The notes under the pieces are model-generated. The model saw only the letters and a program-made list of their open reading frames with translations, was not told where the DNA came from and ran no database searches. The position numbers and the translations under genes were made by a program. This document shows positions 2,835 through 16,222 of a stretch of 16,616 nucleotides of DNA, piece by piece. Position 1 is the first letter of the stretch. The number at the start of each line of letters is the position of its first letter. This DNA is from Massilia sp. (GTDB taxonomy: Bacteria > Pseudomonadota > Gammaproteobacteria > Burkholderiales > Burkholderiaceae_D), in NCBI GenBank assembly GCA_039927975.1, contig JBDSTZ010000252.1, positions 1 to 16,616 of the forward strand, given 5' to 3'.

Positions 2835-2910
<76 letters not shown>

Positions 2911-2925
2911 CAATGAAGAGGCAAG

Positions 2926-2955
2926 ATTATAGTACTGATCTTGCGCCGCCGTCAA
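2926..2955 (-). promoter_or_regulatory. Sigma70-type promoter of tRNA-Ala
   Basis: The minus strand reads TTGACG (-35, rc of 2950-2955), an 18-nt spacer, then TATAAT (-10, rc of 2926-2931). The -10 lies about 15 nt upstream of the tRNA 5' end. Confidence 0.5.
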
Positions 2956-3097
2956 TGCCAAATTGGCGCGGCCCGAGATTGGCGACGCGCGTGCCCGGCG
3001 CCGGCGTCGGGCCGAAGGCGGAGACAGGCAGACAGATTGCGTTTCACTCGGCCCCGCTTTTGATCGCAGGCCCAGCGGCCGGTCCAGCGCGTTGCCG

Positions 3098-3976
3098 CTA
3101 TTGGGCCCGGTCCAAACGCCGTGGCCGCTCGATCACCTCGCGGCAGGCCGCGGCGATGTCCGCTCCCCATTCGGCCAGCAGCGGCCCGGTCGGCACCAGC
3201 CGATCGTCGACTTCCAGCATGCCGATCCAGGCCCGCACCCGCACAGGCGCCAGCGCACCGAAGCACTGCTGGGCGACGACGTCCCTGCCGTTTTCCGGCC
3301 CACCCAAACGCTTGCCTGCACAGGAACCAGATTCCGGATGCAGCGGCGCGAAACCCGTTCCCTGGTTTCGCGAGTTGCCGCTCGTTTCATAGAACACGCT
3401 GATGGCGGGGGTGTAGCGCGTGAGCGTGTCCGGCAGCACCAAGGCGACGTCCCTGACCGCCGCTTCGTAGATATTCCCGGCATCGCCTTCCCACTCGATT
3501 TGCTGGCGCTGGCCGGCCGGGCCGCGGAAGCTCAGTGCCAGGCCGGCGGCGGACAGGTCGAGCGCGTCGCGATCGACCGTGAAGCGCGCTTCGAGCGGGT
3601 AGACTGGCCGGTAGTCGGGCGCGCGGCGATAGCGCAGGCTGTAGGTGATGCCTGGCGTGAAACCGCCGGCAAGTTCAAGGCGGAACAGGCGCGCGCCTCG
3701 CGGCAGGTCATTCGCCACCGGCCCTGGCCGCGCGACTTCCAGCGGCGTCACGATCAGTGCCGGCGCGAGCGCCAGTCCGGACGCGCTCACCTCGAAATCG
3801 GCAGGGTTGAGCCCCAGCGACTCGGGCACCATGAACAGCACGCCTCTCAGGTTGGACGGATACCGCTGCGCGCTGGCGTGCGGGAATCCGATCGTGGTGC
3901 TCGCGATGCACTGTGCCTGAGCGACGCCGTGCACGATTGCGGCGATGGCGAACATGACGATGCGAAGATGTTGCAT
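3098..3976 (-). CDS. Secreted protein of unknown function (Sec signal peptide), 292 aa
   Basis: An ATG at 3976 and a TAG stop at 3098-3100 bound the ORF. The N-terminus MQHLRIVMFAIAAIVHGVAQA-QC has a signal-peptide n/h/c structure. GC3 codon bias is on the minus strand. The overlapping + ORF 2963..4066 is Arg/Ala-rich with no motifs. No domain is recognisable by eye. Confidence 0.65.
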   Translation of the reverse strand: MQHLRIVMFAIAAIVHGVAQAQCIASTTIGFPHASAQRYPSNLRGVLFMVPESLGLNPADFEVSASGLALAPALIVTPLEVARPGPVANDLPRGARLFRLELAGGFTPGITYSLRYRRAPDYRPVYPLEARFTVDRDALDLSAAGLALSFRGPAGQRQQIEWEGDAGNIYEAAVRDVALVLPDTLTRYTPAISVFYETSGNSRNQGTGFAPLHPESGSCAGKRLGGPENGRDVVAQQCFGALAPVRVRAWIGMLEVDDRLVPTGPLLAEWGADIAAACREVIERPRRLDRAQ

Positions 3977-4120: not shown

Positions 4121-7081
4121 TTACTGGCCGAAGCGGTAACGCAGGTTCAGCCCGAAGTTACGGCCGTTACGATAGTGCTGCAACTCGAGGCCGGTCTCGT
4201 AATTGCCACCTGGTTCGCCGATGTAGCGGTTAGGCGCCTTGTCGAGAATGTTCGAGGCGTTCAGCGAGAGGGTCAGGTCCTTGGTGATGTTGTAGTTGAC
4301 CGAGCCGTCCAGGATACCGTAGGCGCCCATGTAGCGGCCCAAGATCGGTTGGGCGTCGAGCGCGAACACGGCGGCCGAACGCCAGGTGTAGACCAGGCGG
4401 GCGGAGAACTTCTGGTCTTCATACATGCCGCTGAAGCTGGCGCTGTTTTTCGACTGGAAGGGCTGCCACAGCTTGACGATGTTCGGTGCCGCCGCGGTGC
4501 CGTAGTTGACCGGATTCTCGGTCGTGACGTAGGTGTACGAACCGGACACGCCGAAGTTCTTCAGCCAGCTCAGCGAGTTGTCGAAGAAGTACTGGCCCGA
4601 CAGTTCGACGCCGCGTGCGAAACCTTTTTCCGCGTTGACGCGCTTGCTGACGCGATACTGGCCGTTCGTGCAGCTGTTCGACACTTGTCCATTGCCCGGC
4701 ACGTAAGCCGGCGCATTGTCGAGCGTGACGCATTCGCTGACATCGCTGAAGAAGCCCTTGATGGATTTGTTGAACACCGCCGCCGCGACATAGTTCGTCT
4801 TGTTGAAGTAGTGTTCAAGCGACAGGTCGAGGTTGTCCGACACCAGCGGCTTCAATTCCGGATTGCCGCGGCTACCGGTGCCGTCGACCGGATTGTAGTT
4901 GACGAACGGGTTCAGGTCGCCCAGCGCCGCGCGGGTCATGCCCCGGCCATAGCCGAAGCGCAGCAGGGTTTCCTTGCTGATATCGTAGGTCGCGTTGAAC
5001 GATGGCAGGGTGTTGCTGTACTCGGTGGTGCGCGCATTGTCGATCAGGCCGTTGACGCTGTTGATCTTGGTGATGGCCGTGCCGTTGGTGCGCACATAGC
5101 GCACACCGACTGCGCCGCGCAGGTGCTCGTCGAGGGCGGCGAATTCACCGACCACGTAGATGGCCTTGGTTTTCTCGTCGACGTAGCGGCGGTCCTGGAT
5201 GCGCTCGAGCAGCGCGCTTTCCATCTGGATGCCGGCCAGCGGGAATTGCGAACGGACCTGGTCGCCGAGCAGCAGATCCGGCGAGTACACCACGTAACCA
5301 CCCGAATAACCGGTGGTGCCGCCCATGAAGTTGGTCGGCGACGACTGGGTCACGCCATAGGTGCTGGCGAGGATGCCGTTGCTGCGGTCGGCTGCCAGCC
5401 CTTTGCCGTCGGTGGTCAACGGACGGTTGTTGTAGCTCCAGTTCTGCGACAAGTCGTCCTGCTTGGCAAGGCGGGTGCCGAACTTGATGCGCTTGAACAG
5501 GCCGTCCTCGATCGAATAGACGCCGGACAAGGCGAGCGCTTTGGCGCTGTCTTTGGAGGCCGAATTGTTACCGTTGTTAAATTCGCGGAACACGAAGTTG
5601 CTCGGGTCCGACAGACTCGGGCCGCTGAAATTGAGGGTGTGCGGCGAGCCATCGGCGACGCGCGAGGTGGTCCACGACAGGCCGTTCTTGGAGTCGAGGA
5701 AAACCGTGCGGTTGTCGGTGCGCTTGGTCGCTTTCAGGAAGGCGTAATCGGCTTTCAGGGCCAGGCTCGGAGTCGGGTTCCAGTCGCTGCCAAACGCCAC
5801 GTTCCAGGTCGAGTACGGGGTATGTTCGTCCACCGACACGGTGTTCACGGTCGAGTTGAGGAAGTCACCGCTCAGGGCACGCTTGGTAGCGAGCACGTCG
5901 TTGGCGCCGCCGCTGACGTTGCGTGCCGACATACCCTTGTCGAAGGTGAACGGCGAGGTTTGCAGGTTCGCCACGTTGACGCCGTCGTTCGAATTGAGGG
6001 CGCGGTAGTTCTGGTGGTACAGGTAGTAGGTGTAGTTGCTTTCGACGTAGAAGCGCAGGGTGTTGTCGACGCGGTAGTCGGCGGCGCCACTGAAGCCCTT
6101 GCGCTCGCGCATGATGGTTTCCTGCGACACGTTGGTGTTCAACGTGGTCGTGACCATGATGTTGTCGATCTGCGCTTGGGTCAGGCCGGTGTTGTCGGGT
6201 GTGTTCGGGCCGATGCTGCCGGCCGTGTTACGGATCGGCACGTTGATCAGGGCATTGATGTCGCTGCGGCCGACAAACTGCGCCTGGGCCTGGAACGGCG
6301 AGTTGGTGGTGTTGGCGGCGGCCAGGGTCGCGTACTCGGCGCTGTCGGCGCGCACCGCGCGTTTCAGGGCCGGGCCGCGGTTGCCCGGGTTGTTATCCGA
6401 GCGGTTGGTGCTGTTCTGCAATTGGCCGGCCAGGGTGTAGCCGAAGCGGCTGCCGCCGCCGAGGTCAATGCGGTTGGCAATGAGTCCGAACACATCCGGC
6501 TCGGTCTGCTTGGCCAGGTCGTTGTAGCGGGCGCCGGCGGAGATCGCGCCGGTCAGGCCCAGCTTGAAATCGCTCGGGTTGCGGGTGCGCACGTTGACCA
6601 GGCCGCCGATGCCGCCTTCGATGTGCTCGGCCGATGGATTCTTGTAGACGTCGACGCCGGCGATCATGCCGGGAATCGCGCTTTCGATGTTGTATTCGCG
6701 GTTGCCGGCGGAGAAGAACGCACGGCCGTTCACCAGCGAGGCGGTTTGGCCGGACAGGCCGCGGATGGTCAGGCCCGAACCGTTGCCGACTGGCGCCGCG
6801 CCTTCGCCGCCGTAGCGGTAGCCCTGCACGCCTGGAATCCGGGTCAGCGTTTCGGCGACGTTCGGATCGGGCAGCTTGCCGATGTCTTCGGCGGTGATCG
6901 AGTCGACCACTTCCATCGCGTCGCGCTTGATGGCGACCGACGAACGGGCGCTGGCCTTCATGCCGGTGACGACGACGGTTGGCGTGACCGCGTCGTCTGC
7001 CGCTACATGGGCGGCAAAGGCTTGCGACACCGCGAGTGCGATGGCGGACACTTTGAGTGTTCTTTGGAAATGCTTGTTCAT
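4121..7081 (-). CDS. TonB-dependent outer-membrane receptor of the large (986 aa) type typical of oligosaccharide uptake
   Basis: The signal peptide is MNKHFQRTLKVSAIALAVSQAFA-AHV. A TonB-box-like TPTVVVTG is present. Plug-domain motifs include DSITAEDIGKLPDPNVAETLTRIPGV and LTIRGLSG. The long beta-barrel ends ...LNLRYRFGQ with a terminal aromatic-x-x motif. The RBS aggggat lies 8 nt upstream of the ATG at 7081. Confidence 0.95.
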   Translation of the reverse strand: MNKHFQRTLKVSAIALAVSQAFAAHVAADDAVTPTVVVTGMKASARSSVAIKRDAMEVVDSITAEDIGKLPDPNVAETLTRIPGVQGYRYGGEGAAPVGNGSGLTIRGLSGQTASLVNGRAFFSAGNREYNIESAIPGMIAGVDVYKNPSAEHIEGGIGGLVNVRTRNPSDFKLGLTGAISAGARYNDLAKQTEPDVFGLIANRIDLGGGSRFGYTLAGQLQNSTNRSDNNPGNRGPALKRAVRADSAEYATLAAANTTNSPFQAQAQFVGRSDINALINVPIRNTAGSIGPNTPDNTGLTQAQIDNIMVTTTLNTNVSQETIMRERKGFSGAADYRVDNTLRFYVESNYTYYLYHQNYRALNSNDGVNVANLQTSPFTFDKGMSARNVSGGANDVLATKRALSGDFLNSTVNTVSVDEHTPYSTWNVAFGSDWNPTPSLALKADYAFLKATKRTDNRTVFLDSKNGLSWTTSRVADGSPHTLNFSGPSLSDPSNFVFREFNNGNNSASKDSAKALALSGVYSIEDGLFKRIKFGTRLAKQDDLSQNWSYNNRPLTTDGKGLAADRSNGILASTYGVTQSSPTNFMGGTTGYSGGYVVYSPDLLLGDQVRSQFPLAGIQMESALLERIQDRRYVDEKTKAIYVVGEFAALDEHLRGAVGVRYVRTNGTAITKINSVNGLIDNARTTEYSNTLPSFNATYDISKETLLRFGYGRGMTRAALGDLNPFVNYNPVDGTGSRGNPELKPLVSDNLDLSLEHYFNKTNYVAAAVFNKSIKGFFSDVSECVTLDNAPAYVPGNGQVSNSCTNGQYRVSKRVNAEKGFARGVELSGQYFFDNSLSWLKNFGVSGSYTYVTTENPVNYGTAAAPNIVKLWQPFQSKNSASFSGMYEDQKFSARLVYTWRSAAVFALDAQPILGRYMGAYGILDGSVNYNITKDLTLSLNASNILDKAPNRYIGEPGGNYETGLELQHYRNGRNFGLNLRYRFGQ

Positions 7082-7153
7082 ACTTTTTTATCCCCTGCTT
7101 TTGGTGGTTTTTTTTGGGTAAATCATTTGCTATCGGCTTCACGCGCTGCGGCG

Positions 7154-7169
7154 GGATATCGATAACAAA
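7154..7169. promoter_or_regulatory. Candidate operator ggATATCGATAACAAA upstream of the TBDR gene (copy 1 of a motif shared across the locus)
   Basis: The motif sits 73-88 nt upstream of the TBDR ATG, immediately downstream (minus-strand sense) of a TATGAT -10-like hexamer. Its 8-bp palindromic core TATCGATA is identical to the copies at 11298-11336 and 13794-13809. Confidence 0.45.
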
Positions 7170-7301
7170 CCGGAGCGATCATACGAGAATTTCTTTTGAT
7201 AATGAATACTTTTTTGACTTGTTGCGTATGTACAACGCTCAAGCGCCCCTCCCTCCTTTCTTGATGCGCGATACGCGCGACATGGCTCAACGGCGGCGCA
7301 T

Positions 7302-7375
7302 GTCGCGCGTGTCGTTCGTGGTCGCGCGTGTCGTTCGTGTCGCGCATGTCGTTCGTGTCGCGCATGTCGCGCAAG
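7302..7375. repeat. Tandem direct repeat with a 19-nt unit gtcgcgcgtgtcgttcgtg, two perfect and about two degenerate copies, in the PEP-CTERM/TBDR intergenic region
   Basis: Units are at 7302-7320 and 7321-7339 (both perfect), 7340-7357 (18 nt, G to A change), then a decaying copy. There are no interspersed unique spacers, so this is not a CRISPR array. It creates the artefactual MSFVSRMSFVSR peptide of track ORF 7328..8104. Confidence 0.75.
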
Positions 7376-7492
7376 TCGCATATGTCGTCCACATCGTCCG
7401 CATCGCGCGGCAACGCGGCAACACTAGCCCCGCCGACAGGGCGAGCGCCCCGTCGGCCGATCAAACATCGCGTGGAAAAATGCCTCGGTGGC

Positions 7493-8083
7493 TCAGCCCT
7501 GGCGGCGGCGCAGCGCGGCGAACATGGCGCAGCCGGCCACCAGCATCAGCAGGAACGGCGCCGGTTCCGGCACCTGGTTCACTTGCGTGAGCGCGTTGGT
7601 GACGAAGCTCAGTTGCTGGCCGATCGGCGCACCCGGCTGGACGAAAATGCTGCCGAGGTCGCCGTTGGCGCCCAGATAGCTGGTGTCGTTGAACAAGGCC
7701 CAGCTGAACGCGCTGCCGTCGCCGCTGCCGGCCACGAAGCTGACATCGAAGATGAAGTGGCCGCCCAGCGTGATCGCCTGTACCAGGTCGCCACCGCCGC
7801 CGGGGCTGCTGAACACGACTGTGCCTGGCAGCGCGCCACTGACCGAACCGCTGGTGTTCTCGGCGCCCACCAGCGCGCCGGTCAGGCCGCTGAGGGAGGC
7901 GCTGCTGCCAGTGTCGGACAACACCAGGAAATTGAAACCGAGGTAAGCGCTGCCGCTACCCAGGGTCGAGGTGTCGATGTCGACGTGGAAGTACGGCACG
8001 GCGGTCGCGCCGGCGCCGCCGGCCGAGGCGCACAGCGCGAGCGCCAGCGCCAGGCGTGCGAAGATATTTTTGTAGTGATGCAT
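7493..8083 (-). CDS. PEP-CTERM sorting-domain protein (putative exosortase substrate), about 196 aa, with a Gly/Ser-rich N-terminal domain of unknown function
   Basis: The C-terminus ...VNQVPEPAPFLLMLVAGCAMFAALRRRQG* is a canonical PEP-CTERM (VPEP, TM helix, Arg cluster). The signal peptide is MHHYKNIFARLALALALCASAGGAGA. A strong RBS AAGGAGA lies 6 nt upstream of the ATG at 8083. The track start at 8131 is rejected because it overlaps the upstream gene and has no RBS. The start is 10 nt downstream of the lyase A stop, so the two genes are in one operon. Confidence 0.85.
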   Translation of the reverse strand: MHHYKNIFARLALALALCASAGGAGATAVPYFHVDIDTSTLGSGSAYLGFNFLVLSDTGSSASLSGLTGALVGAENTSGSVSGALPGTVVFSSPGGGGDLVQAITLGGHFIFDVSFVAGSGDGSAFSWALFNDTSYLGANGDLGSIFVQPGAPIGQQLSFVTNALTQVNQVPEPAPFLLMLVAGCAMFAALRRRQG

Positions 8084-8093
8084 GGTGGTCTCC

Positions 8094-11000
8094 TTAATAT
8101 TTAACGCTGATGAATTTCGACGTGTACCCAATGGCCGCCTTGTTCGGATTCGAGAAGGTGGTCGTCAAGGTCACGGTCTGTCCAGGCGCCAGATCGGCCG
8201 CCGGCAGCGTGATGTACGGCGCGCCGTCATGCGTGCCGGTGGCGTTGTCGAGCGTGACGCCGGCGGTAAGGCCGTCGAGCCGGAATTGCAGCGGGCCGTA
8301 CAGCGTGGCGTCGCTGGTGTTGGTGATGCTGACGGTGCCGGTGTACTTGAGCGTGAAGCGGTTCATCGTCAGGCCCGAGCGCATGATCTTCGCGCTGGCG
8401 CCCAGGTCGACCGGGGTCAGCAAGTCGTAGCGGGTGCCGAAGAAGCGCAGTTCGCCGTACGACGAAATGCCGGGGAAGGCGGGATCGGTCGGCACGCCCG
8501 GATGGTCGACGCGCATCATGAAGTAGCGGTAGCGCTGCTTCTCCAGGCCTGGCACCACGGGGATGACTTCCATCTCGAAATTGCGCTCGGTGGTGTCGCT
8601 CGTTTCACGGCTCGACAGCAAGGTCCAGCTGGCGTTGTCGTTCGAGCCGTAGATGTTCAAGCCCTGCGAGCGGTTGGCGAACATGAAGCGCGCCTGCACG
8701 CCGATGGCGCCGAGCGACATCCGGTAGTCGGCGCCGAGATCGAGGTAGGCCGGCGCGCGCAGGTCGCCCGAGTAGCTGTTGTAGTCGCCGTCGACCAGCA
8801 GCGCGGCGCGGTTGCGGTCGAAATTGGTGGTGCCGGCGATGAAGTTCTTGCTCCAGTCCAGGCTGCCGTCGGCGACCACGAGCGGATTGAGCAGTTCCAG
8901 TTTGGCGGTCACGCCCTGCACTTGCTTGAGCAGGGCCGGGAAGTCGGCGTCGCTGGTGCTGTCGATGGCCGCCTGCAGCGGCGCCATGCTGGACTTGAAG
9001 GCGGCCAGCGACGGCGTGGTGTACACCTTCTCGGCGCTGTAGCCGTCCTGGGCGACCTGGAAGGCGGTGGCGCGGTCCGGTTGCACACTCAGGCGCGCCG
9101 TCATGGTGTTGATCGAGACGCCATCGGTGACGCTGATGACGATATTGTGCACGCCGACCTGGTCGGCGCCGGGGGTCCAGTTGAACTGGCCGCTGGCGCT
9201 GTCGAGGCTGGCGCCGGCCGGCAGGCTGATGCCCTCGTAGACCGGGGTGTCGGCGGCATTCGCGTCGGTCGCCTTGTAGTTGCCCGTGTACGGCACGCCC
9301 TGCACCACCAGCTCGGTGACGGGGAACGCCGGCGAGGCGAAGAACGGCACCGTCAGCTGGGTCGGCGCGGCCATGTTGACGAAGTCGACGTCCACCGTGC
9401 TGCCTTCGGCGCCGCTGAACTTGAAGACGATCAGGTTGGCGCCGAGCCACTTGCCGGCGGTCGCCGCGTTCGACGAGTCGGGCACGATGTAGCGCCACTG
9501 GCCGTGCGTGTTGGGCACCGTGATGTCGGCCCACGGACTGGCGTTCTGCTCGGCGCTGGCGCTCATTTTCATGACCGCGTTGGTGCGCACCATCATGCCC
9601 ACCGGGGCGAACTTGGCGCGGTCCGCATAGCCGACGTCGTGGAAGGCGATGGTGGCGCCGGCCGGCTTGACGTCGGCGTGGCCATAGGTGCGTCCCGCTT
9701 CGGTCTGGGTGGTCCAGGCGCCCGCGATGAAACTGCTCTTGCGTTCGGTCTGCAGCAAGCCCTGGTCGTTCGGCAGCGCCACGCCGGTCAGCGCGGTCGG
9801 GATGGTCAGGAAGGCTTGCGAGCCCATGTCCTTGTTGTTCGGCGTGGCGTTGCCCCAGAAAATGGCCGGGCCGTTCGAGTGGGCCGCCGCCGCCGCGAGG
9901 TAGGGCGCGGTCGCTTCGACGTCGACGCCTTCCTGGTACTTGTACATATTGTAGATTTCGGCGATCGCGTCGACTTCGTAGAGCCGGCCGCGGTACGCGC
10001 TCGACGGATAGGAGGTGCCGCCATTGGTGTCGGCCCACGGGATCTCGTAGCCGAGCATGTACTGGGCGTAGGCGTTGGCACCCTTTAGCAGGCGGTTGCC
10101 GCCGAACTGATAGACGCTGACCGCGTCGCCCAGGGTCGAGGGCTTGCCGCTGAAGGGATCGACCTTGGTGCCTTGCGCGTTGACCAGGCGGAACAGGCCG
10201 GACAGGATGTCGACGTTGTCGCCGCCGTGGGCTTGGTCGCGGGCCATTTCCTGGATCTGGTAGAACGGCACGCCGAACTTGTTGTACGGGTTGTTCACGT
10301 CGATGAAGGGAATCAGCGGCAGCACGGCGCCGTTGATGTTCTGGCGGGTCGAGGTGGCGTTGACCGTCATCCATTCGACGGTTTCATCGTAGCGCGCGCG
10401 GTTGTCGGTGAAGATCGCGCCCGCCATGCGTCCGACCAGCGAGTAATTGTGCTGGTTCATGAAGCGCTCGTTGCTCGAAAACAGCACGCGCTCGAGCGGG
10501 TCGATCAGGTTGTCCTTGAGCTTCTGGGTGTCGGTATCGGTCCAGGCGAGCGGATAGGAGGTGTAGCTCGGATCGGCGTAGGAGTAGCGCATGATCTCGG
10601 CCGCCTGCAGCATGCGCGAGAGCGGCACGCCGTTGTGGATGTGGGCGTCGGGGAAATACGCTGCGCCGGCCGGATTCATATTGCTCCAGGTGCGCAGGAT
10701 GCGCATGGCGTTGCGGCGATAGTCGTTATTGCCCGTCACGTAGTACAGGATGGCCTGGGTCAGCGCGCCTTGCGAATCGTTGATCAGGCGGGTCTGGGCC
10801 GTATTGTTGTTGAAGTTAGGGGTGTTCGGGGTGTCGACCTTGGTCGAGTCGCGGTTGGTCGGCTGCAGGTTGATGTTGGCGTAGTTGCAGCAGGCGGTGG
10901 CCAGCGCGTCGTAGTAACTCTTGTACGGCTCGACGTCGGCGCGCACCTGCTGACGCATGTAGTCGAGCTGCTCCATCGTGAAGCCGAGCGCCGGATGCTT

Positions 11001-11177
11001 GAAGCCGTTCGGGCTGACGACCGGCTGCGAGGCCGGGGTGGAGATGAAACCGAGCGCTTGAGCGGGCGCCGTTGCCAGCGCCCACAGGGCCGCGGCGACC
11101 GACACTGCCGTGACGCAGGCCTTGAGCGTGCCGCGTGCGGGACGCGCGATGCTGCCATTTTCATAACGATTGTGCAT
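8094..11177 (-). CDS. Secreted multidomain polysaccharide-lyase-like protein (about 1027 aa). Domains are an alginate-lyase/heparinase-type (alpha/alpha)-toroid with a beta-sandwich, a He_PIG-type Ig-like domain, an F5/8 type C (discoidin, CBM32-like) domain and a C-terminal beta-domain.
   Basis: The signal peptide is MHNRYENGSIARPARGTLKACVTAVSVAAALWALATAPAQA-LG. The ATG at 11177 with AAGGA 5 nt upstream is preferred over 11192, which has no RBS. The toroid region is paralogous to the next gene, sharing HP(A/G)L..T...(D)(F/Y)MR..V, AAEIMRY, a Q-HN motif and a RDQ(A/G)H motif. LPAGASLDSASGQFNWTPGADQVGVHNIVISVTDG matches the putative-Ig (He_PIG) pattern. ALLVDGDYNSYSGDLRAPAYLDLGADYRMSLGAIGV..IYGSNDNASWTLL matches F5/8 type C. 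The exact lyase family is unresolved. Confidence 0.75.
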   Translation of the reverse strand: MHNRYENGSIARPARGTLKACVTAVSVAAALWALATAPAQALGFISTPASQPVVSPNGFKHPALGFTMEQLDYMRQQVRADVEPYKSYYDALATACCNYANINLQPTNRDSTKVDTPNTPNFNNNTAQTRLINDSQGALTQAILYYVTGNNDYRRNAMRILRTWSNMNPAGAAYFPDAHIHNGVPLSRMLQAAEIMRYSYADPSYTSYPLAWTDTDTQKLKDNLIDPLERVLFSSNERFMNQHNYSLVGRMAGAIFTDNRARYDETVEWMTVNATSTRQNINGAVLPLIPFIDVNNPYNKFGVPFYQIQEMARDQAHGGDNVDILSGLFRLVNAQGTKVDPFSGKPSTLGDAVSVYQFGGNRLLKGANAYAQYMLGYEIPWADTNGGTSYPSSAYRGRLYEVDAIAEIYNMYKYQEGVDVEATAPYLAAAAAHSNGPAIFWGNATPNNKDMGSQAFLTIPTALTGVALPNDQGLLQTERKSSFIAGAWTTQTEAGRTYGHADVKPAGATIAFHDVGYADRAKFAPVGMMVRTNAVMKMSASAEQNASPWADITVPNTHGQWRYIVPDSSNAATAGKWLGANLIVFKFSGAEGSTVDVDFVNMAAPTQLTVPFFASPAFPVTELVVQGVPYTGNYKATDANAADTPVYEGISLPAGASLDSASGQFNWTPGADQVGVHNIVISVTDGVSINTMTARLSVQPDRATAFQVAQDGYSAEKVYTTPSLAAFKSSMAPLQAAIDSTSDADFPALLKQVQGVTAKLELLNPLVVADGSLDWSKNFIAGTTNFDRNRAALLVDGDYNSYSGDLRAPAYLDLGADYRMSLGAIGVQARFMFANRSQGLNIYGSNDNASWTLLSSRETSDTTERNFEMEVIPVVPGLEKQRYRYFMMRVDHPGVPTDPAFPGISSYGELRFFGTRYDLLTPVDLGASAKIMRSGLTMNRFTLKYTGTVSITNTSDATLYGPLQFRLDGLTAGVTLDNATGTHDGAPYITLPAADLAPGQTVTLTTTFSNPNKAAIGYTSKFISVKY

Positions 11178-11297
11178 GATTGTCCTTATCATTTTTTAAA
11201 TGACCAGGCGATCCAGGGGTCGCGTAGTTCTCCTCCAATGGTATGTTTTCGATACCACAAACGATGCTAGCATGATTTATTGTTATTTCAGTTAAGC

Positions 11298-11344
11298 TTT
11301 TTGTTATCGATATCCTCATTTTTGTTATCGATATCCAATGTCAA
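11298..11344 (-). promoter_or_regulatory. Promoter/operator region of lyase A. Two perfect 18-nt direct repeats tttttgttatcgatatcc at 21-bp spacing lie downstream of a consensus -35 TTGACA.
   Basis: Copies are at 11298-11315 and 11319-11336, separated by tca. Each contains the palindrome TATCGATA. On the minus strand the perfect TTGACA (rc of 11339-11344) is followed by operator 1 and then operator 2, placing the operators over the spacer/-10/+1 region. This is an AT-rich island in GC-rich DNA, 121-159 nt upstream of the ATG. Confidence 0.5.
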
Positions 11345-11534: not shown

Positions 11535-13703
11535 TTAACTTTGCATCAGCGTGACAATCTCGCTGGCGCTGAGCGCGCCGCTGTAGATGCGGAAGTCGTC
11601 GATTTTGCCGTTGAAGTAAGGGTCGCTGGCGTATTGCGAGCGGCCGATCCAGTTCTGGTTGGTCGAGCCGAGCCGGAACGGCGCGTGCTTGATGTCGGGG
11701 CTCGATCCAACCAGTGCGCCGTTGACGTAGAGCGAGCCGTTGCTGCCTGCCAGGGTCACGGCCACGTGCACCCACTGCCCGGTCGGCAGCGCGGCGGTGC
11801 CGACGATGCCCTGTTCGCCGACGCCGTAATCGGTCGTGATGCCAAAGCGCAGCAGGCCGTTGTTGGTGCTCGGGGTCAGCATCATGTAGTGCTCGGTGCC
11901 GTTACCGAAATCGAAGATGCGCGTCCAGTTGCGCGCGGCGTCCCAGTACACCCAGGCGGCGATGGTGAAGTCGGCCAGCGTGCGCACCACGTCAGTCGGC
12001 AGGCTGACGTAATCGTTGCTGCCGTCGAAGGCCAGCGCGTTGCCGCTGCGCCCGGCCACCCACAACGGACCGTTGACCAGGGTGCCGGACTGGCCGCGCC
12101 CGGTGGCGTCGGCCGCCACCGTGCCGCTGGTTTCGTCGAACTTGAGCCAGACGTGCGGACGCTTGCCCGCGCCGACCTTCACCTCGGCCGAGGGCGCGCT
12201 TTCGCCGGCCGGGCCGACCGCCGTCACCACGTAATAATAGAGGCCGCTGCTCACGCCAGTGTCGGTCCAGGTGAGCAAGTCGCTGATGCCGCTGGCGACG
12301 GTGGTGTACGGCCCGCCCGAGATGGTGGCGCGCTTGACCTTGTAGCTGGTGGCCTGGGCACTGCCCCACCACGACAGCAGCACCGCGCCGCCGCTCCAGT
12401 TTCCGGTCAGCCCGCTTGGCGCTGCACCGGCGGCGTATGGATCGCGCGTGAAGGTGAGCGTGCCAAAGCCAAGCTGGTCACCGTTGCCGCCGTTGTTTTC
12501 CGGACGCATCTGCGCGGCCTGCAGCGCGGTGTACGGCGCGGCCAGGCCCTTGCGGTTGACGTAGTGGTTCAGCACCAGTTCCCACACCGGACGCAGGCTG
12601 CCCTGCGAGGCCGGCGACAGCCCCGGCTGGGTGTTGTTGATGTTCTTGTAGAGCGTGAACGGCACACTGTAGTGGGCGCCGCTGGCGTCGGTCAGATTCG
12701 ATTTCGCCACATACTCCGAGCCGGCCAGGAAGCGGTTGTTATCGTAGCCGAACATGTCGTCGCCCTGGTTCCAGGCCATTTCGCAAAACACACTGGCGAG
12801 GCCGATCCCCAGCGTGCAGTGGCCCTGATCGCGGCCGCTTTCCTGCCACTGTCCCAGATGACCCGGATGCACGTAGTACACGGCCTGGCTGCTGCTGCCG
12901 TTGCCCGCTCCGGTCTTGAAGTAATTGATCGCCTCGTCGTACAGGTCGGCGCGGTCGCAAAAGACGCCGATCGCGATGATCGCGGCGATCGTGCACTGGT
13001 CCCAGTTGGCCCAGTAATTGGTGATGTCGGCGCCGTTGTGCTGGACCAGGAACTGGTGGTTCAGCGGATAGAAGACATTGAGCAGCAAGTTCTGGAACTT
13101 GGTCTGGTCGGCCGCCGCCCAGCCGGGATAGGTGCGCATGATTTCGGCGGCGTTGGCCCATTCGTAGCCTTGGATGCCGGCAGCGAGGAAGCGGTCGGCG
13201 TTGCCGGTCAGGGTCGTCATGGTCGACGACCAGGCGTTCAGGAAGACCACCGCCTGGTCGGCGTAGGCGGTGTCGCCGGAAACCTTCCAGCGCAGCGCCA
13301 TCTGGTAGGTGCGATGGATATCGATAACCATTTGGTTCACGTTGTCGCCGGTGCCGCCGCGGATCACCGTCTGCAGCGCGCGCGGCGCGGTGCCGAGCTG
13401 GGAGTAGCCGTTGGCCAGCAGAGCGTTCCAGCCGTCCAGCCAGGGCTGGGCGCCGGCCGTCACCTTGGCGCGCATGCGGGTGAAGTCCGCTTCGGTGTGC
13501 AGCAGGCCCGGGTGGATGAAGGTGCGCGCGACCAGGGCGTCGGCGAGCAGGGTCGGCGCCGCCGCGCCGGGGGCCGCCGTGGAGGTCTCGGCCGCGCCGC
13601 CGCAACCGGACAGGCTGAGCGGGCCGAGCGTGGCCAGCCCGAGTCCGCCCGCGCACAGCGAACGGCGTTTCATGGAAAATTTTTGATCGTTGTTATTTGA
13701 CAT
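11535..13703 (-). CDS. Lipoprotein alginate-lyase-family-like (alpha/alpha-toroid) polysaccharide lyase with a C-terminal fibronectin type III domain and a LamG_3 (concanavalin A-like lectin) domain, 722 aa
   Basis: The ATG at 13703 has GAGGAG 5 nt upstream. The N-terminus MSNNNDQKFSMKRRSLCAGGLGLATLGPLSLSGC has a lipobox LSGC, and the RRSL may indicate Tat export. The catalytic toroid is paralogous to lyase A (FIHPGLLHTEADFTRMRAKV, AAEIMRTY, VQHN, RDQGHCTLG). An FN3-like segment follows (SWWGSAQATSYKVKRATISGGPYTTVASG...YYYVVTAV). LamG_3 motifs are also present (WVYWDAARNWTRIFDFGNG....GKIDDFRIYSGALSASEI). Confidence 0.8.
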   Translation of the reverse strand: MSNNNDQKFSMKRRSLCAGGLGLATLGPLSLSGCGGAAETSTAAPGAAAPTLLADALVARTFIHPGLLHTEADFTRMRAKVTAGAQPWLDGWNALLANGYSQLGTAPRALQTVIRGGTGDNVNQMVIDIHRTYQMALRWKVSGDTAYADQAVVFLNAWSSTMTTLTGNADRFLAAGIQGYEWANAAEIMRTYPGWAAADQTKFQNLLLNVFYPLNHQFLVQHNGADITNYWANWDQCTIAAIIAIGVFCDRADLYDEAINYFKTGAGNGSSSQAVYYVHPGHLGQWQESGRDQGHCTLGIGLASVFCEMAWNQGDDMFGYDNNRFLAGSEYVAKSNLTDASGAHYSVPFTLYKNINNTQPGLSPASQGSLRPVWELVLNHYVNRKGLAAPYTALQAAQMRPENNGGNGDQLGFGTLTFTRDPYAAGAAPSGLTGNWSGGAVLLSWWGSAQATSYKVKRATISGGPYTTVASGISDLLTWTDTGVSSGLYYYVVTAVGPAGESAPSAEVKVGAGKRPHVWLKFDETSGTVAADATGRGQSGTLVNGPLWVAGRSGNALAFDGSNDYVSLPTDVVRTLADFTIAAWVYWDAARNWTRIFDFGNGTEHYMMLTPSTNNGLLRFGITTDYGVGEQGIVGTAALPTGQWVHVAVTLAGSNGSLYVNGALVGSSPDIKHAPFRLGSTNQNWIGRSQYASDPYFNGKIDDFRIYSGALSASEIVTLMQS

Positions 13704-13793
13704 TCGGTCTCCTCTTCAGTTGAAAGCCCGCGTGCCCGGCGAGATTGTCGAGCATGAACGGGGGTGCTTGAAGCAGGCAGATTATGCGCGGTA

Positions 13794-13809
13794 TTTTATC
13801 GATAACACG
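13794..13809. promoter_or_regulatory. Candidate operator ttTTATCGATAACAcg (perfect 10-bp palindrome TTATCGATAA) upstream of lyase B, adjacent to a CATAAT -10-like hexamer
   Basis: The site lies 91-106 nt upstream of the lyase B ATG on the minus strand. On the minus strand the order is TGTTATCGATAAAA, then taccgcg, then CATAAT. It is the same motif as at 7154-7169 and 11298-11336. Confidence 0.45.
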
Positions 13810-13901
13810 ATTGCTCACCTATGGTTTTTTTCACGGGAAGTCGGGCTGTGTTTACGTGTTTTGGTATGCCTTCAGCGTGTTTGGACGGAAGTTCACGCAG
13901 G

Positions 13902-13977
13902 ATGCATTTGAGATGCATTCGGCATGCAATCACTATGCAATCAGCATGCAATCAGCGTTCAATCAGCGGGTAATCGT
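13902..13977. repeat. Array of 7 heptads ATGCA(A/T)T (decaying to gttcaat and gggtaat) at exact 11-bp spacing, with a core unit ATGCAATCAGC
   Basis: Heptad starts are at 13902, 13913, 13924, 13935, 13946, 13957 and 13968. The array lies in the divergent intergenic region between lyase B (-) and the flotillin-like gene (+). It creates a spurious N-terminal extension of track ORF 13784..16222. Confidence 0.8.
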
Positions 13978-14266
13978 GATGCGGTGGATATGTACTCGGT
14001 CGGCGAACCGCAACGTGCGCAATGGCCCGGACCGGTCCGGCGCTGCGCAGGGAGCACAGGATGCGGCATCAGGACGCCCGACGTTTACGGATTGTTTACG
14101 CCATCCGGCAATGTCTTTACGACATTTTTATCGCCGGGCCGATACGCTGATTGCATGGCCGAACCCTCTGTTGTCCCGCCGCCCGCGCAGCGCGCCGGCC
14201 GACACCGAGGCGCCCACTTTGTCGACCGCCGTGTTCGCCGCGCGTCGACTGTATCGAAGGAACGCT

Positions 14267-16222
14267 ATGTTAGAGACAGTTTCGATTTTAAAGATATCCG
14301 CAGTGCTCATCATCGCCCTGCTCCTGTTCCTGGCCAGCCAGGTGGTGGTCTACATCGCCAACGAGAAAATCGGTATCGTGGAAAAGAAATGGTCGCGCCA
14401 CGGCTCGGTGCGCCACGGTTTCATCGCCCTGCACGGCGAGGCCGGCTTCCAGCCCGAGGTGCTGCGCGGCGGCTTCCACGTGTTCTTCCCCTTCCAGTAC
14501 CGGGTGCACCGGCACGACCTGGTCACCGTGCAGCAAGGCACCCTCGCCTACGTCTTCGCGCGCGACGGCCTGGCGATGGAGCCGACCCAGAACCTGGCTT
14601 GCAACAAGCACGCCAAGGACTTCACCGACGTGCGCGCCTTCCTGACCGACGGCGGCCAGAAGGGTCTGCAACGCAAGATCCTGCGCGAGGGGACCTACGC
14701 CATCAACCTGGCCCAGTTCGTCGTGCTCACGGCCGACAAGGTGTATGCGCTGCGCCTGCCCGGCGACGGCAATATCGACGGCGCCGGCGAGGCGGTCGGC
14801 AAGCTGGCTGAAACGCTCGACGAGGTGCGCCGGCGCGACGGCTTCGAGCCGCTGGTGATTCGCGCCGACAAGCTGGCCGTGATCACCACCCACGAAGGCC
14901 AGTCGCTGCCGGAAGGCACGATCGTCGCGCCGGTGGTCGGCGCCGACCCGGCCGACCCGGCCAGCTACCACCACGATTACCAGAATCCGGAAGTGTTCAT
15001 CGAAGCCGGCGGTTACAAGGGGCGTCAGCTGCAGGTGCTGGTCGAAGGCACTTACTATCTCAACGCCCGCTTCGCCTCGTATGAGATCGTCGACAAGACG
15101 GTGGTCGCGGTCGGCTTTGTCGGCGTGGTCGTGTCCTACACCGGCAAGACCGGCAACGATCTTACCGGCGAGGCCTACCGCCATGGCGAACTGGTCAGCA
15201 GCGACGAGAAAGGCGTGCTGGCCACGCCGCTGATGCCCGGCAAGTACGCGCTCAATCCCTACGCCAAGCGCGTCATCGACGTGCCGACCACTAACTTCAT
15301 CTTGAAGTGGCAGTCGGGCGCGGTCGGCTCGCACGAACTCGACAAGCACCTGAGCGAAGTCTCGCTGATCACCAAGGATGCCTTCGAGCCGGACCTGCCG
15401 CTGTCGGTGGTGGTCAATATCGACTACAAGATGGCGCCGCTGGTGATCCAGCGTTTCGGCGACATCCGCAAGCTGGTCGAGCAGACCCTCGACCCGATGG
15501 TGGCCGCCTACTTCAAGAACATTGGCCAGGGCAAGACGCTGATCGAGCTGCTGCAGGAACGATCCGATATCCAGGAGCGCGCCAAGGCCGAGATGCGCAA
15601 GAATTTCGAGGGCTACAACCTGACCTTGAACGAGGTGCTGATCGGCACCCCGCGCGCCAAGGATGGCGACACCCAAATCGAGGTGATCCTCAAGCAGCTG
15701 CGCGAGCGCCAGGTCTCGCGCGAGCAGCTTGAAACCTACAAGACCAAGGAAGTGGCGGCGGTGCAGGAGCGCATCTTGCGCGAAGCCGAGGCCAGGGCCA
15801 AGCAGCAGACCGCGATCACCGAGTCCGAGCTCGCCGTCAAGATCGCCGAGAACCAGGGTAGCGCGGCGGTGCAGAAGGCCACCAAGGCGGCCGAGGAAGC
15901 ACGCCAGAGCGCCAGTGGCGCGGCCGACGCCAAGCGCTCGCTGGCCGAGGCCGAAGCCTTCCAGATCCAGCGCGTCGGCCAGGCCCAGGCCACCGCCACC
16001 GAACTGAACGTAGCCGCGTATGGCGGCCCCGAGCTGCAATTCCAGCAGACCGTGCTGCTGCGCTTTGCCGAGGCGATCGAACGCGGCCGCATTGCGCTGG
16101 TGCCGTCGATTCAAGCGGGCGGCCAGGGCGGCGGTTCGGCGATCGATGCGTTCATGGGGCTGGCGGCGAGGGAGTTGCTGGCGAAGGGCCGCAGTGCGGA
16201 GACGGATGGCGGCACGCAGTAA
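14267..16222 (+). CDS. SPFH/band-7 domain protein, flotillin-like (YqiK family), about 651 aa with an N-terminal TM helix and an Ala/Glu-rich coiled-coil C-terminal half
   Basis: An ATG at 14267 is preceded by gaaggaacgct. The N-terminus MLETVSILKISAVLIIALLLFLASQVVVYIA is a TM helix. It is followed by an SPFH-like region (KIGIVEKKW...GFHVFFPFQYRVHRHDLVTVQQG). A long EA-rich repeat region follows (EARAKQQTAITESELAVKIAENQGSAAVQKATKAAEEARQ...) and the protein ends in a Gly-rich tail. The track start at 13784 and the antisense ORF 14288..16339 are rejected. Confidence 0.85.
   Translation: MLETVSILKISAVLIIALLLFLASQVVVYIANEKIGIVEKKWSRHGSVRHGFIALHGEAGFQPEVLRGGFHVFFPFQYRVHRHDLVTVQQGTLAYVFARDGLAMEPTQNLACNKHAKDFTDVRAFLTDGGQKGLQRKILREGTYAINLAQFVVLTADKVYALRLPGDGNIDGAGEAVGKLAETLDEVRRRDGFEPLVIRADKLAVITTHEGQSLPEGTIVAPVVGADPADPASYHHDYQNPEVFIEAGGYKGRQLQVLVEGTYYLNARFASYEIVDKTVVAVGFVGVVVSYTGKTGNDLTGEAYRHGELVSSDEKGVLATPLMPGKYALNPYAKRVIDVPTTNFILKWQSGAVGSHELDKHLSEVSLITKDAFEPDLPLSVVVNIDYKMAPLVIQRFGDIRKLVEQTLDPMVAAYFKNIGQGKTLIELLQERSDIQERAKAEMRKNFEGYNLTLNEVLIGTPRAKDGDTQIEVILKQLRERQVSREQLETYKTKEVAAVQERILREAEARAKQQTAITESELAVKIAENQGSAAVQKATKAAEEARQSASGAADAKRSLAEAEAFQIQRVGQAQATATELNVAAYGGPELQFQQTVLLRFAEAIERGRIALVPSIQAGGQGGGSAIDAFMGLAARELLAKGRSAETDGGTQ

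Follow-up and report, generated by a model that had tools for sequence, protein, structure and literature searches.

Seven near-copies of the heptad ATGCA(A/T)T, phased at 11 bp, stand between a polysaccharide-lyase gene and a divergently oriented flotillin-like gene of a Massilia sp., and they raise the question of whether such an array is a set of protein-binding sites or the product of the way in which the DNA was copied. The window analysed here is an entire contig of a metagenome-assembled Massilia sp., 16,616 bp in length. The original prediction, made from the letters alone, likened the heptads to iterons, to a response-regulator binding-site array or to a nucleoprotein-wrapping element, and it also suggested that the array had grown by slippage. 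The origin of the repeated unit, its distribution in related loci and the other candidate regulatory sites of the two flanking genes all bear on the choice between these readings.

Genomic context of the array

The window encodes a polysaccharide-lyase cluster, with the flotillin-like gene at its right-hand side, and the following genes were recognized in it:

Gene for an APP1-like phosphatase, within the window
Gene for a FliD-like protein, within the window
2838-2910, minus strand: tRNA
4121-7081, minus strand: TonB-dependent receptor
Gene for a PEP-CTERM protein, within the window
8094-11192, minus strand: lyase A, with alginate-lyase and Ig-like domains
11535-13703, minus strand: lyase B, with alginate-lyase and LamG domains
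14267-16222, plus strand: SPFH/flotillin-like protein

Lyase B most likely starts at the ATG at 13703, and the divergent intergenic region is therefore taken to extend from 13704 to 14266, a length of 563 bp. An AGGAGA Shine-Dalgarno sequence is found 5 nt upstream of this ATG, and the DNA alignment of lyase B with its homologs extends to 13703 in locus L036 and to 13694 in locus L035. These two loci carry the closest lyase B homologs for which DNA is at hand, with products of 723 and 725 aa. Together, the Shine-Dalgarno sequence, the lengths of the homologs and the DNA alignment suggest a lyase B product of 722 aa. The deposited protein has 712 aa and is read from the ATG at 13673, with the ATG at 13703 in frame further upstream.

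The intergenic stretch is somewhat richer in AT, with a GC content of 0.48-0.57 against 0.64 for the whole window. A consensus scan returned no sigma-70 promoters or terminators, the intergenic region had no Rfam match, whether at the gathering threshold or at E<=1, and no remnant of a histidine-kinase gene was found in the part of the region that is specific to the window. Two other candidate features were considered and set aside: a direct duplication of 13793-13825 against 14124-14158 was no better than in shuffled sequence, and an RNA element found no support, as there was no Rfam match and the predicted fold reached only z = -2.1.

Structure of the 11-bp array

The array and its seven units read as follows:

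13902-13978, plus strand: array of seven head-to-tail 11-bp units, consensus ATGCAATCAGC, recognized from the sequence, TRF and shuffles
13902, unit 1: ATGCATTTGAG, five mismatches to the consensus
13913, unit 2: ATGCATTCGGC, three mismatches
13924, unit 3: ATGCAATCACT, two mismatches
13935, unit 4: ATGCAATCAGC, perfect
13946, unit 5: ATGCAATCAGC, perfect
13957, unit 6: GTTCAATCAGC, two mismatches
13968, unit 7: GGGTAATCGTG, five mismatches

The heptads are thus present at every position where they had been reported, at the reported period, and both TRF and the shuffles agree with this description. TRF returned an array at 13913-13967 with a period of 11, 5.0 copies, 81% matches and 0% indels. 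At the best 66-nt stretch, 50 of the 66 bases match those found 11 positions away; when the intergenic region was shuffled 500 times with its dinucleotides preserved, no lag between 3 and 30 gave more than 36 matches. The six ATGCAWT heptads of the 16.6-kb window all lie between lyase B and the flotillin gene. Given a lyase B start at 13703 and a flotillin start at 14267, the distances first proposed, about 200-270 bp upstream of lyase B and 290-365 bp upstream of the flotillin gene, are also correct.

The units follow one another head to tail without spacers or indels, the central units are identical and the edge units are decayed, as in a slippage-type tandem repeat, and for these reasons the proposal that the array grew by slippage is upheld. 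The accompanying idea that the repeat decays toward the right describes only one of its two ends: the right edge is indeed decayed, but so is the left one, and units 4 and 5 alone are perfect. Being a direct repeat and not a dyad, the array does not have the form of a palindromic operator of the LacI type. A weak outlying direct copy (ATGCCTTCAGCGT, plus strand, 13866-13878), which came out of a sequence search with 11 of 13 positions identical to ATGCAATCAGCGT, may be a chance match.

The exact 11-bp phasing is an automatic product of tandem duplication and gives no independent evidence of design. B-DNA makes one turn in about 10.5 bp. On this geometry, successive units would be rotated by about 17 degrees and the whole array by about 100 degrees, so that the placement of all heptads on a single DNA face, as originally described, would hold only approximately. 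The distribution of mismatches was also considered. Of the 17 mismatches of the array, 9 fall on positions 9-11 of the unit (Fisher p=0.012, uncorrected), but the contrast between heptad and spacer has p=0.065 once a free choice of the block is allowed, that is, 6.5% of random placements do as well, and a division of the array into conserved heptads and variable spacers is therefore not established.

Comparison with related loci

A scan of genome contigs with the flotillin protein returned 34 loci with 54-87% identity, the full-length Oxalobacteraceae matches having 81-87%. All but one of them come from Oxalobacteraceae or unclassified Burkholderiales bins (33 of 34), the outlier being a Sphingomonadaceae bin with 54% identity. 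Among these 34 loci, none is syntenic with the lyase cluster, none shows similarity to the window outside the coding sequence, and none carries the array motif. An exact-protein look-up found no second contig with this locus, and the collections searched hold no orthologous lyase B / flotillin intergenic region. The lyase B homologs have at most 75% identity and are found in different contexts; upstream of them no array motif was seen at the two homolog loci inspected, where similarity to the window is confined to the coding part.

The closest flotillin proteins are those of three metagenome contigs, L196, L197 and L198, with 92, 90 and 89% identity, respectively. Their upstream regions align with the window only from about 14080 to the flotillin start codon, and the sequence to the left of 14080, array included, is specific to the window contig. 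The features common to the window and these three relatives are a group of TTTAC boxes, a block reading CGATACGCTGATTGCATGGCCGAACCCTC, and a GAGGCGCCCAnTTT box with a hairpin before the ribosome-binding site.

The hairpin, CGACnGC-GTGTTCGC-GC..GTCGAC, and the GAGGCGCCCAnTTT box lie at 14211-14255, just before the flotillin ribosome-binding site, and have no Rfam match. The spacer between the block containing CATGGCCGAACCCTC and that containing the GAGGCGCCCAnTTT box varies from about 15 to 43 nt. Leader RNA or operator are candidate roles that the conserved blocks at 14154-14167 and 14211-14255 may have. In L197, a TonB-dependent receptor gene and an alginate-lyase gene follow directly downstream of the flotillin gene (5559-9534; flotillin identity 90%), while the lyase cluster of the window lies upstream of it; polysaccharide-utilisation genes may have been inserted repeatedly in the neighbourhood of the flotillin gene.

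An inverted copy upstream of the flotillin gene

The comparison of the array with the rest of the window brought out three further features:

14144-14157, minus strand: exact inverted copy of the unit and its flanks, CATGCAATCAGCGT, at a position conserved in relatives
14139-14167, plus strand: conserved flotillin-upstream block, CGATACGCTGATTGCATGGCCGAACCCTC, recognized by alignment with relatives
13918-13958, plus strand: array core, which after removal of two units reads TTCGG-CATGCAATCAGCGT, from comparison with 14144-14163

Outside the array, the 11-mer has a single exact copy in the window, at 14146-14156 on the minus strand, and the identity extends to the 14-mer CATGCAATCAGCGT. This is an eighth copy, which the original prediction missed. 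The two arms, at 13945-13958 and 14144-14157, are inverted with respect to each other and have 185 bp between them, and an inverted exact match of 14 nt was reached in only 2 of 5000 shuffles in which the left part of the intergenic region was shuffled.

The resemblance goes beyond the unit itself. When two units (22 nt) are taken out of the array, what remains can be aligned, with one 1-nt gap, to the reverse complement of 14144-14163 (TTCGGCCATGCAATCAGCGT) so that 19 of 20 positions are identical, and this match covers the flanks on both sides of the 11-mer. A match that includes the flanks is predicted by copying and not by selection on a binding core.

The block in which the inverted copy lies can be aligned to the sequence upstream of flotillin in L196, L197 and L198, and the inverted 14-mer is therefore regarded as ancestral. 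The stretches of the relatives that correspond to it read ACGCTGGTTGACATG, AGCCTGTTTGCATG and GGCTTTCTACATG, next to an invariant GGCCGAACCCTC, and CATGGCCGAACCCTC (14154-14167) is the same in the window, L196, L197 and L198. The part of the block that is amplified in the array is its less conserved half (GATTGCAT, GGTTGACAT, GTTTGCAT, TTCTACAT), and the invariant half, GGCCGAACCCTC, is unamplified. From these alignments, the block at 14139-14167 is likely to be the source of the array seed.

Candidate regulatory sites of the flanking genes

Other short repeated motifs are found near the genes of the cluster, both as palindromes and as direct repeats:

7156-7165: palindrome TTATCGATA(A/T), upstream of the TonB-dependent receptor
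11304-11313 and 11325-11334: two palindromes TTATCGATA(A/T), upstream of lyase A, in two 18-bp direct copies of TTTTTGTTATCGATATCC
13318-13327: palindrome TTATCGATA(A/T), inside lyase B
13796-13805: palindrome TTATCGATAA, of the TTATCGATA(A/T) pattern, upstream of lyase B and beside a CATAAT hexamer resembling a -10 element
14084, 14095, 14116 and 14127 (14084-14131): four TTTAC(G/A)/TTTAT direct repeats, spaced by 11, 21 and 11 bp, upstream of the flotillin gene

The palindrome pattern has 11 matches against 0.28 expected. A TGTTATCGATAACA-like dyad with the core TTATCGATA(A/T) recurs upstream of the lyase B homologs, near 7905, 14962 and 15106 in L035 and near 7815 and 7920 in L036, and a LacI-family gene stands beside the lyase in L035. 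This LacI-type palindrome, with the comparative support just described, is probably the repressor operator of the polysaccharide-lyase locus. The other promoters of the window, among them the regions that carry the palindrome, do not contain the ATGCAAT motif of the array.

The TTTAC boxes belong to the flotillin side. The pattern TTTAC-N6-TTTAY has two occurrences against none expected, and the boxes are found again in the relatives (L196, about 2950-3000; L197, about 3283-3335; L198, about 4866-4915), as well as upstream of the flotillin gene of L017. The flotillin gene of L196 and L197 has a divergently oriented two-component operon as its neighbour, whose regulator has its best score with KdpE and whose kinase matches the C-terminal half of KdpD. 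The half-sites of E. coli KdpE, TTTATA and TTTACA, are 5 bp apart, which amounts to an 11-bp period (PMC3264566). The TTTAC boxes fit a KdpE-type half-site TTTAYA with a 5-bp spacer, and ATGCAAT does not. No two-component system is encoded in the window, which has kept the TTTAC boxes and has the lyase cluster where L196 and L197 have the two-component operon.

Because the boxes are conserved and match KdpE-like half-sites, it is they, and not the array, that are the putative response-regulator-type repeats with 11-bp phasing in this region. The array itself is best read as lying in spacer DNA, between the control region of lyase B and that of the flotillin gene. The suggestion that it is an iteron set, a response-regulator array or a wrapping element thus found no support: the unit has 11 bp, there is no rep gene and no DnaA box, the motif is absent elsewhere, and the contrast between core and spacer stays at p=0.065.

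Origin of the array

The reading that we prefer, and hold with moderate confidence on the basis of these sequence comparisons, is that the array derives from an inverted partial duplicate of the flotillin-upstream block, which was expanded by slippage in spacer DNA. In this view, at least about 20 bp of the conserved flotillin-upstream segment (plus strand ACGCTGATTGCATGGCCGAA) would have been copied in inverted orientation to a place about 200 bp upstream, and this partial duplicate would have been the seed. Slipped-strand mispairing would then have multiplied the 11-mer ATGCAATCAGC inside the inverted duplicate, and the outer units would later have decayed through point mutation. The place of these events would be the junction of lineage-specific DNA, which holds the promoter and operator of lyase B, with the conserved flotillin control region. 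We infer their order from the present state of the repeat, in the same way as the neutrality of the array.

An inverted duplicate is put forward as the seed because the unit recurs exactly only once more in the 16.6 kb, within the inverted 14-mer, a match length rarely reached in shuffles; because the reduced array matches the reverse complement of the block with its flanks included; and because the parent block is ancestral, being shared with relatives whose flotillin proteins are 89-92% identical. The same reading is favoured since it is the less conserved half of the block that was amplified and the invariant half that was not. As for its role, the array probably has no dedicated function and would, at most, give any factor that binds the parent segment some additional weak sites, given that each of the flanking genes has its own candidate sites nearer its start and that the array motif is absent from all other promoters examined. 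On the other hand, the concentration of mismatches at unit positions 9-11 would also fit a conserved 8-bp core, and a pair of sites bound by a protein would likewise account for the exact inverted copy beside the flotillin control sites.

Bacterial VNTRs or minisatellites are the closest known counterpart of such an array, with which it shares the head-to-tail units, the lack of indels, the homogeneous centre, the decayed edges and the position in a non-coding spacer. It differs from them in having a seed that can be traced, by way of an inverted copy, to a conserved promoter segment close by; for VNTRs, such a source is usually not on record. As it stands, the array is one more intergenic tandem repeat of an ordinary kind and matters little in itself. 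The useful outcome is a map of the intergenic region that separates an eye-catching repeat from the sites with comparative support for a regulatory role. The case also shows that exact phasing within a tandem repeat is no evidence for protein binding, and the traceable origin of the unit makes it a small and clear example of how such arrays are seeded.

Operator and switch models

A different explanation, which we consider doubtful although it has a real chance of being right, is that of a functional multi-site operator. The protein in question would recognise the heptad ATTGCAT at the flotillin-upstream block and, about 190-250 bp further upstream, the five to seven phased copies as well. Through cooperative binding, or by looping the 185 bp that separate the array from the inverted copy, it would couple the expression of lyase B and flotillin. 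A core of 7-8 bp with a variable spacer of 3-4 bp and a period of 11 bp is the layout of OmpR/PhoB-family sites, and the passage cited here for Mycobacterium tuberculosis PhoP describes 7-bp repeats with a 4-bp spacer (PMC4832192). Direct repeats of a 6-7-bp core at a period of 10-11 bp are indeed present in the array, as they are in the KdpE sites (PMC3264566), with a short core followed by a variable spacer and several units in a row, but an 11-bp tandem duplication yields such a layout automatically.

The core of the array is less variable than its spacer only in the uncorrected comparison (p=0.012), and the contrast is not significant after correction. Moreover, the array core, unlike that of the OmpR/PhoB-family sites, matches no cognate regulator half-site: no candidate regulator is encoded in the window, and the KdpE-like regulator beside the flotillin gene of two relatives expects TTTAYA, which the TTTAC boxes supply and ATGCAAT does not. 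No conservation of the sites, or sharing across a regulon, was seen: the motif is missing from every other promoter examined (the promoters of the window, the 34 flotillin loci and the two lyase B homolog loci). The central position of the array in a long divergent intergenic region and its exact inverted copy in a conserved promoter-proximal block would suit an operator. Nevertheless, the relatives differ from one another in the heptad part of the block, and the identity of the inverted copy runs into the flanks (C...GT and TTCGG), which argues for copying rather than for selection on a binding core.

An extended form of the operator model, which we regard as improbable, treats the array and the block as one two-part cis element. 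The protein bound at the block would also sit on the five to seven copies, the 185-bp segment with the KdpE-like boxes would be looped out or flipped by way of the 14-bp arms, and slippage would tune the coupling between lyase and flotillin. If true, the element would be a switch of the contingency-locus type, in which the copy number sets the coupling of polysaccharide-lyase and flotillin in an environmental Massilia.

An invertible DNA switch was also considered and appears quite unlikely. In this model, an invertase would act on the 14-bp arms at 13945-13958 and 14144-14157, flip the 185-bp segment with the TTTAC boxes and so redirect a promoter between the flotillin gene and lyase B. Perfect 14-bp inverted repeats do enclose 185 bp of promoter-bearing DNA between divergent genes, within the span of roughly 100-750 bp of intergenic DNA that such switches enclose, and the arms are predicted to pair, as RNA or DNA, modestly better than shuffled sequence does (z = -2.1). 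Known invertible promoters of comparable size include fimS, cwpV and the Bacteroides switches. However, no recombinase gene is present in the 16.6-kb window, which is a short contig, and the orientation and order of the segment are the same as in the non-repeated arrangement of the relatives, which do not have the left arm. In addition, the left arm lies within a tandem array, which is atypical of invertase sites.

Intron-like arrays with the same unit and iterons

The unit of the array is also found in DNA of a very different kind. A metagenome scan for three phased ATGCAWT heptads returned at least 120 matching stretches. Among the matches listed, at least 49 are high-GC contigs (0.58-0.68; L040-L156) with arrays of exactly ATGCAATCAGC, often several per contig, and this unit is by far the commonest one, with at least 40 loci against at most 10 for any other spacer. 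These contigs have a low coding density by a GC3 criterion, for which bacterial controls give 0.65-0.88, and their ORFs encode EF-hand, SUZ, MORN, WD40 and BspA-type LRR domains, so that the contigs look eukaryotic.

The arrays of these contigs end, on the opposite strand, in CCTCCCTCATCAG, a polypyrimidine-CAG head, and direct target duplications of roughly 10-40 bp, often with (AG)GT as their first letters, stand on either side of many of them. Some examples of such (GCTGATTGCAT)n insertions ending in CCTCCCTCATCAG are those of L149 (6498-6660), L108, L093, L115, L053, L132, L143 and L091. The copy number differs between homologous metagenome loci, with four units in L047, six in L115 and L117, and seven in L149. 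Splicing from the first duplicate to the CAG of CCTCCCTCATCAG would restore the original sequence in these arrays. As far as the cited passages go, introners are transposon-derived introns of eukaryotes whose splicing restores the original sequence (bioRxiv 10.1101/2022.06.06.494994, also PMC9860276; PMC12130899). From their structure, the (GCTGATTGCAT)n insertions have the look of an introner-type family, whose members would create introns and carry the 11-mer repeat inside them. A literature string search for ATGCAATCAGC and CCTCCCTCATCAG returned primers only, and the translated repeat, compared with a protein database, matched metagenome fragments only.

One may then ask whether the array of the window is a fragment of this intron-like family, or shares a cause with it, a polysaccharide-degrading bacterium having taken it up from algal DNA. 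The identity of the unit with the internal repeat of the family, and the frequency of that unit among the matches listed, are the points that speak for such an origin, which we nonetheless hold to be very unlikely. The contigs concerned look eukaryotic, the window is bacterial and its units are degenerate, and nothing in it apart from the repeat matches those contigs. The head motif CCTCCCTCATCAG is absent from the whole window, and there is no target-site duplication around the array, the longest direct repeat between its 80-bp flanks being 6 nt, against mostly 10-40 nt in the metagenome loci. Furthermore, it would be no great coincidence for two arrays to share a unit, because the ATGCAAT heptad already occurs with at least 35 of the 256 possible spacers among the matches listed. 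The inverted copy in an ancestral bacterial promoter block is a sufficient local origin, and the resemblance to the eukaryote-like arrays is probably coincidental.

An iteron set at a replication origin or partition site, for which phased direct repeats in a somewhat AT-richer stretch are the sole point in favour, is regarded as refuted: an iteron origin has repeats of about 17-22 bp, a rep gene, DnaA boxes and an AT-rich unwinding element, whereas the array has an 11-bp unit, rep, par and dnaA genes are missing from the 16.6 kb, a search of the intergenic region for DnaA boxes with up to one mismatch found none, the plasmid collection gave no match to this region, and the flanking genes are ordinary chromosomal genes of Oxalobacteraceae.

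A second tandem array on the contig

To return to the preferred reading, an inverted duplicate expanded by slippage, tandem repeats form readily on this contig, as is shown by a second intergenic array at 7296-7387:

7301-7369 (overlapping TRF rows 7296-7387): tandem array with an 18-bp unit, TGTCGCGCATGTCGTTCG, 3.8 copies and 94% matches

The distance of either array to the lyase-locus gene downstream of it is about 200-300 bp. This agreement may be more than an accident, and in that case it would count against the preferred reading. The 18-bp array lies within a looser 9-bp periodicity, about 215-300 bp upstream of the TonB-dependent receptor gene; with respect to this gene and the operator palindrome, it is placed in a similar way to the 11-bp array at lyase B.
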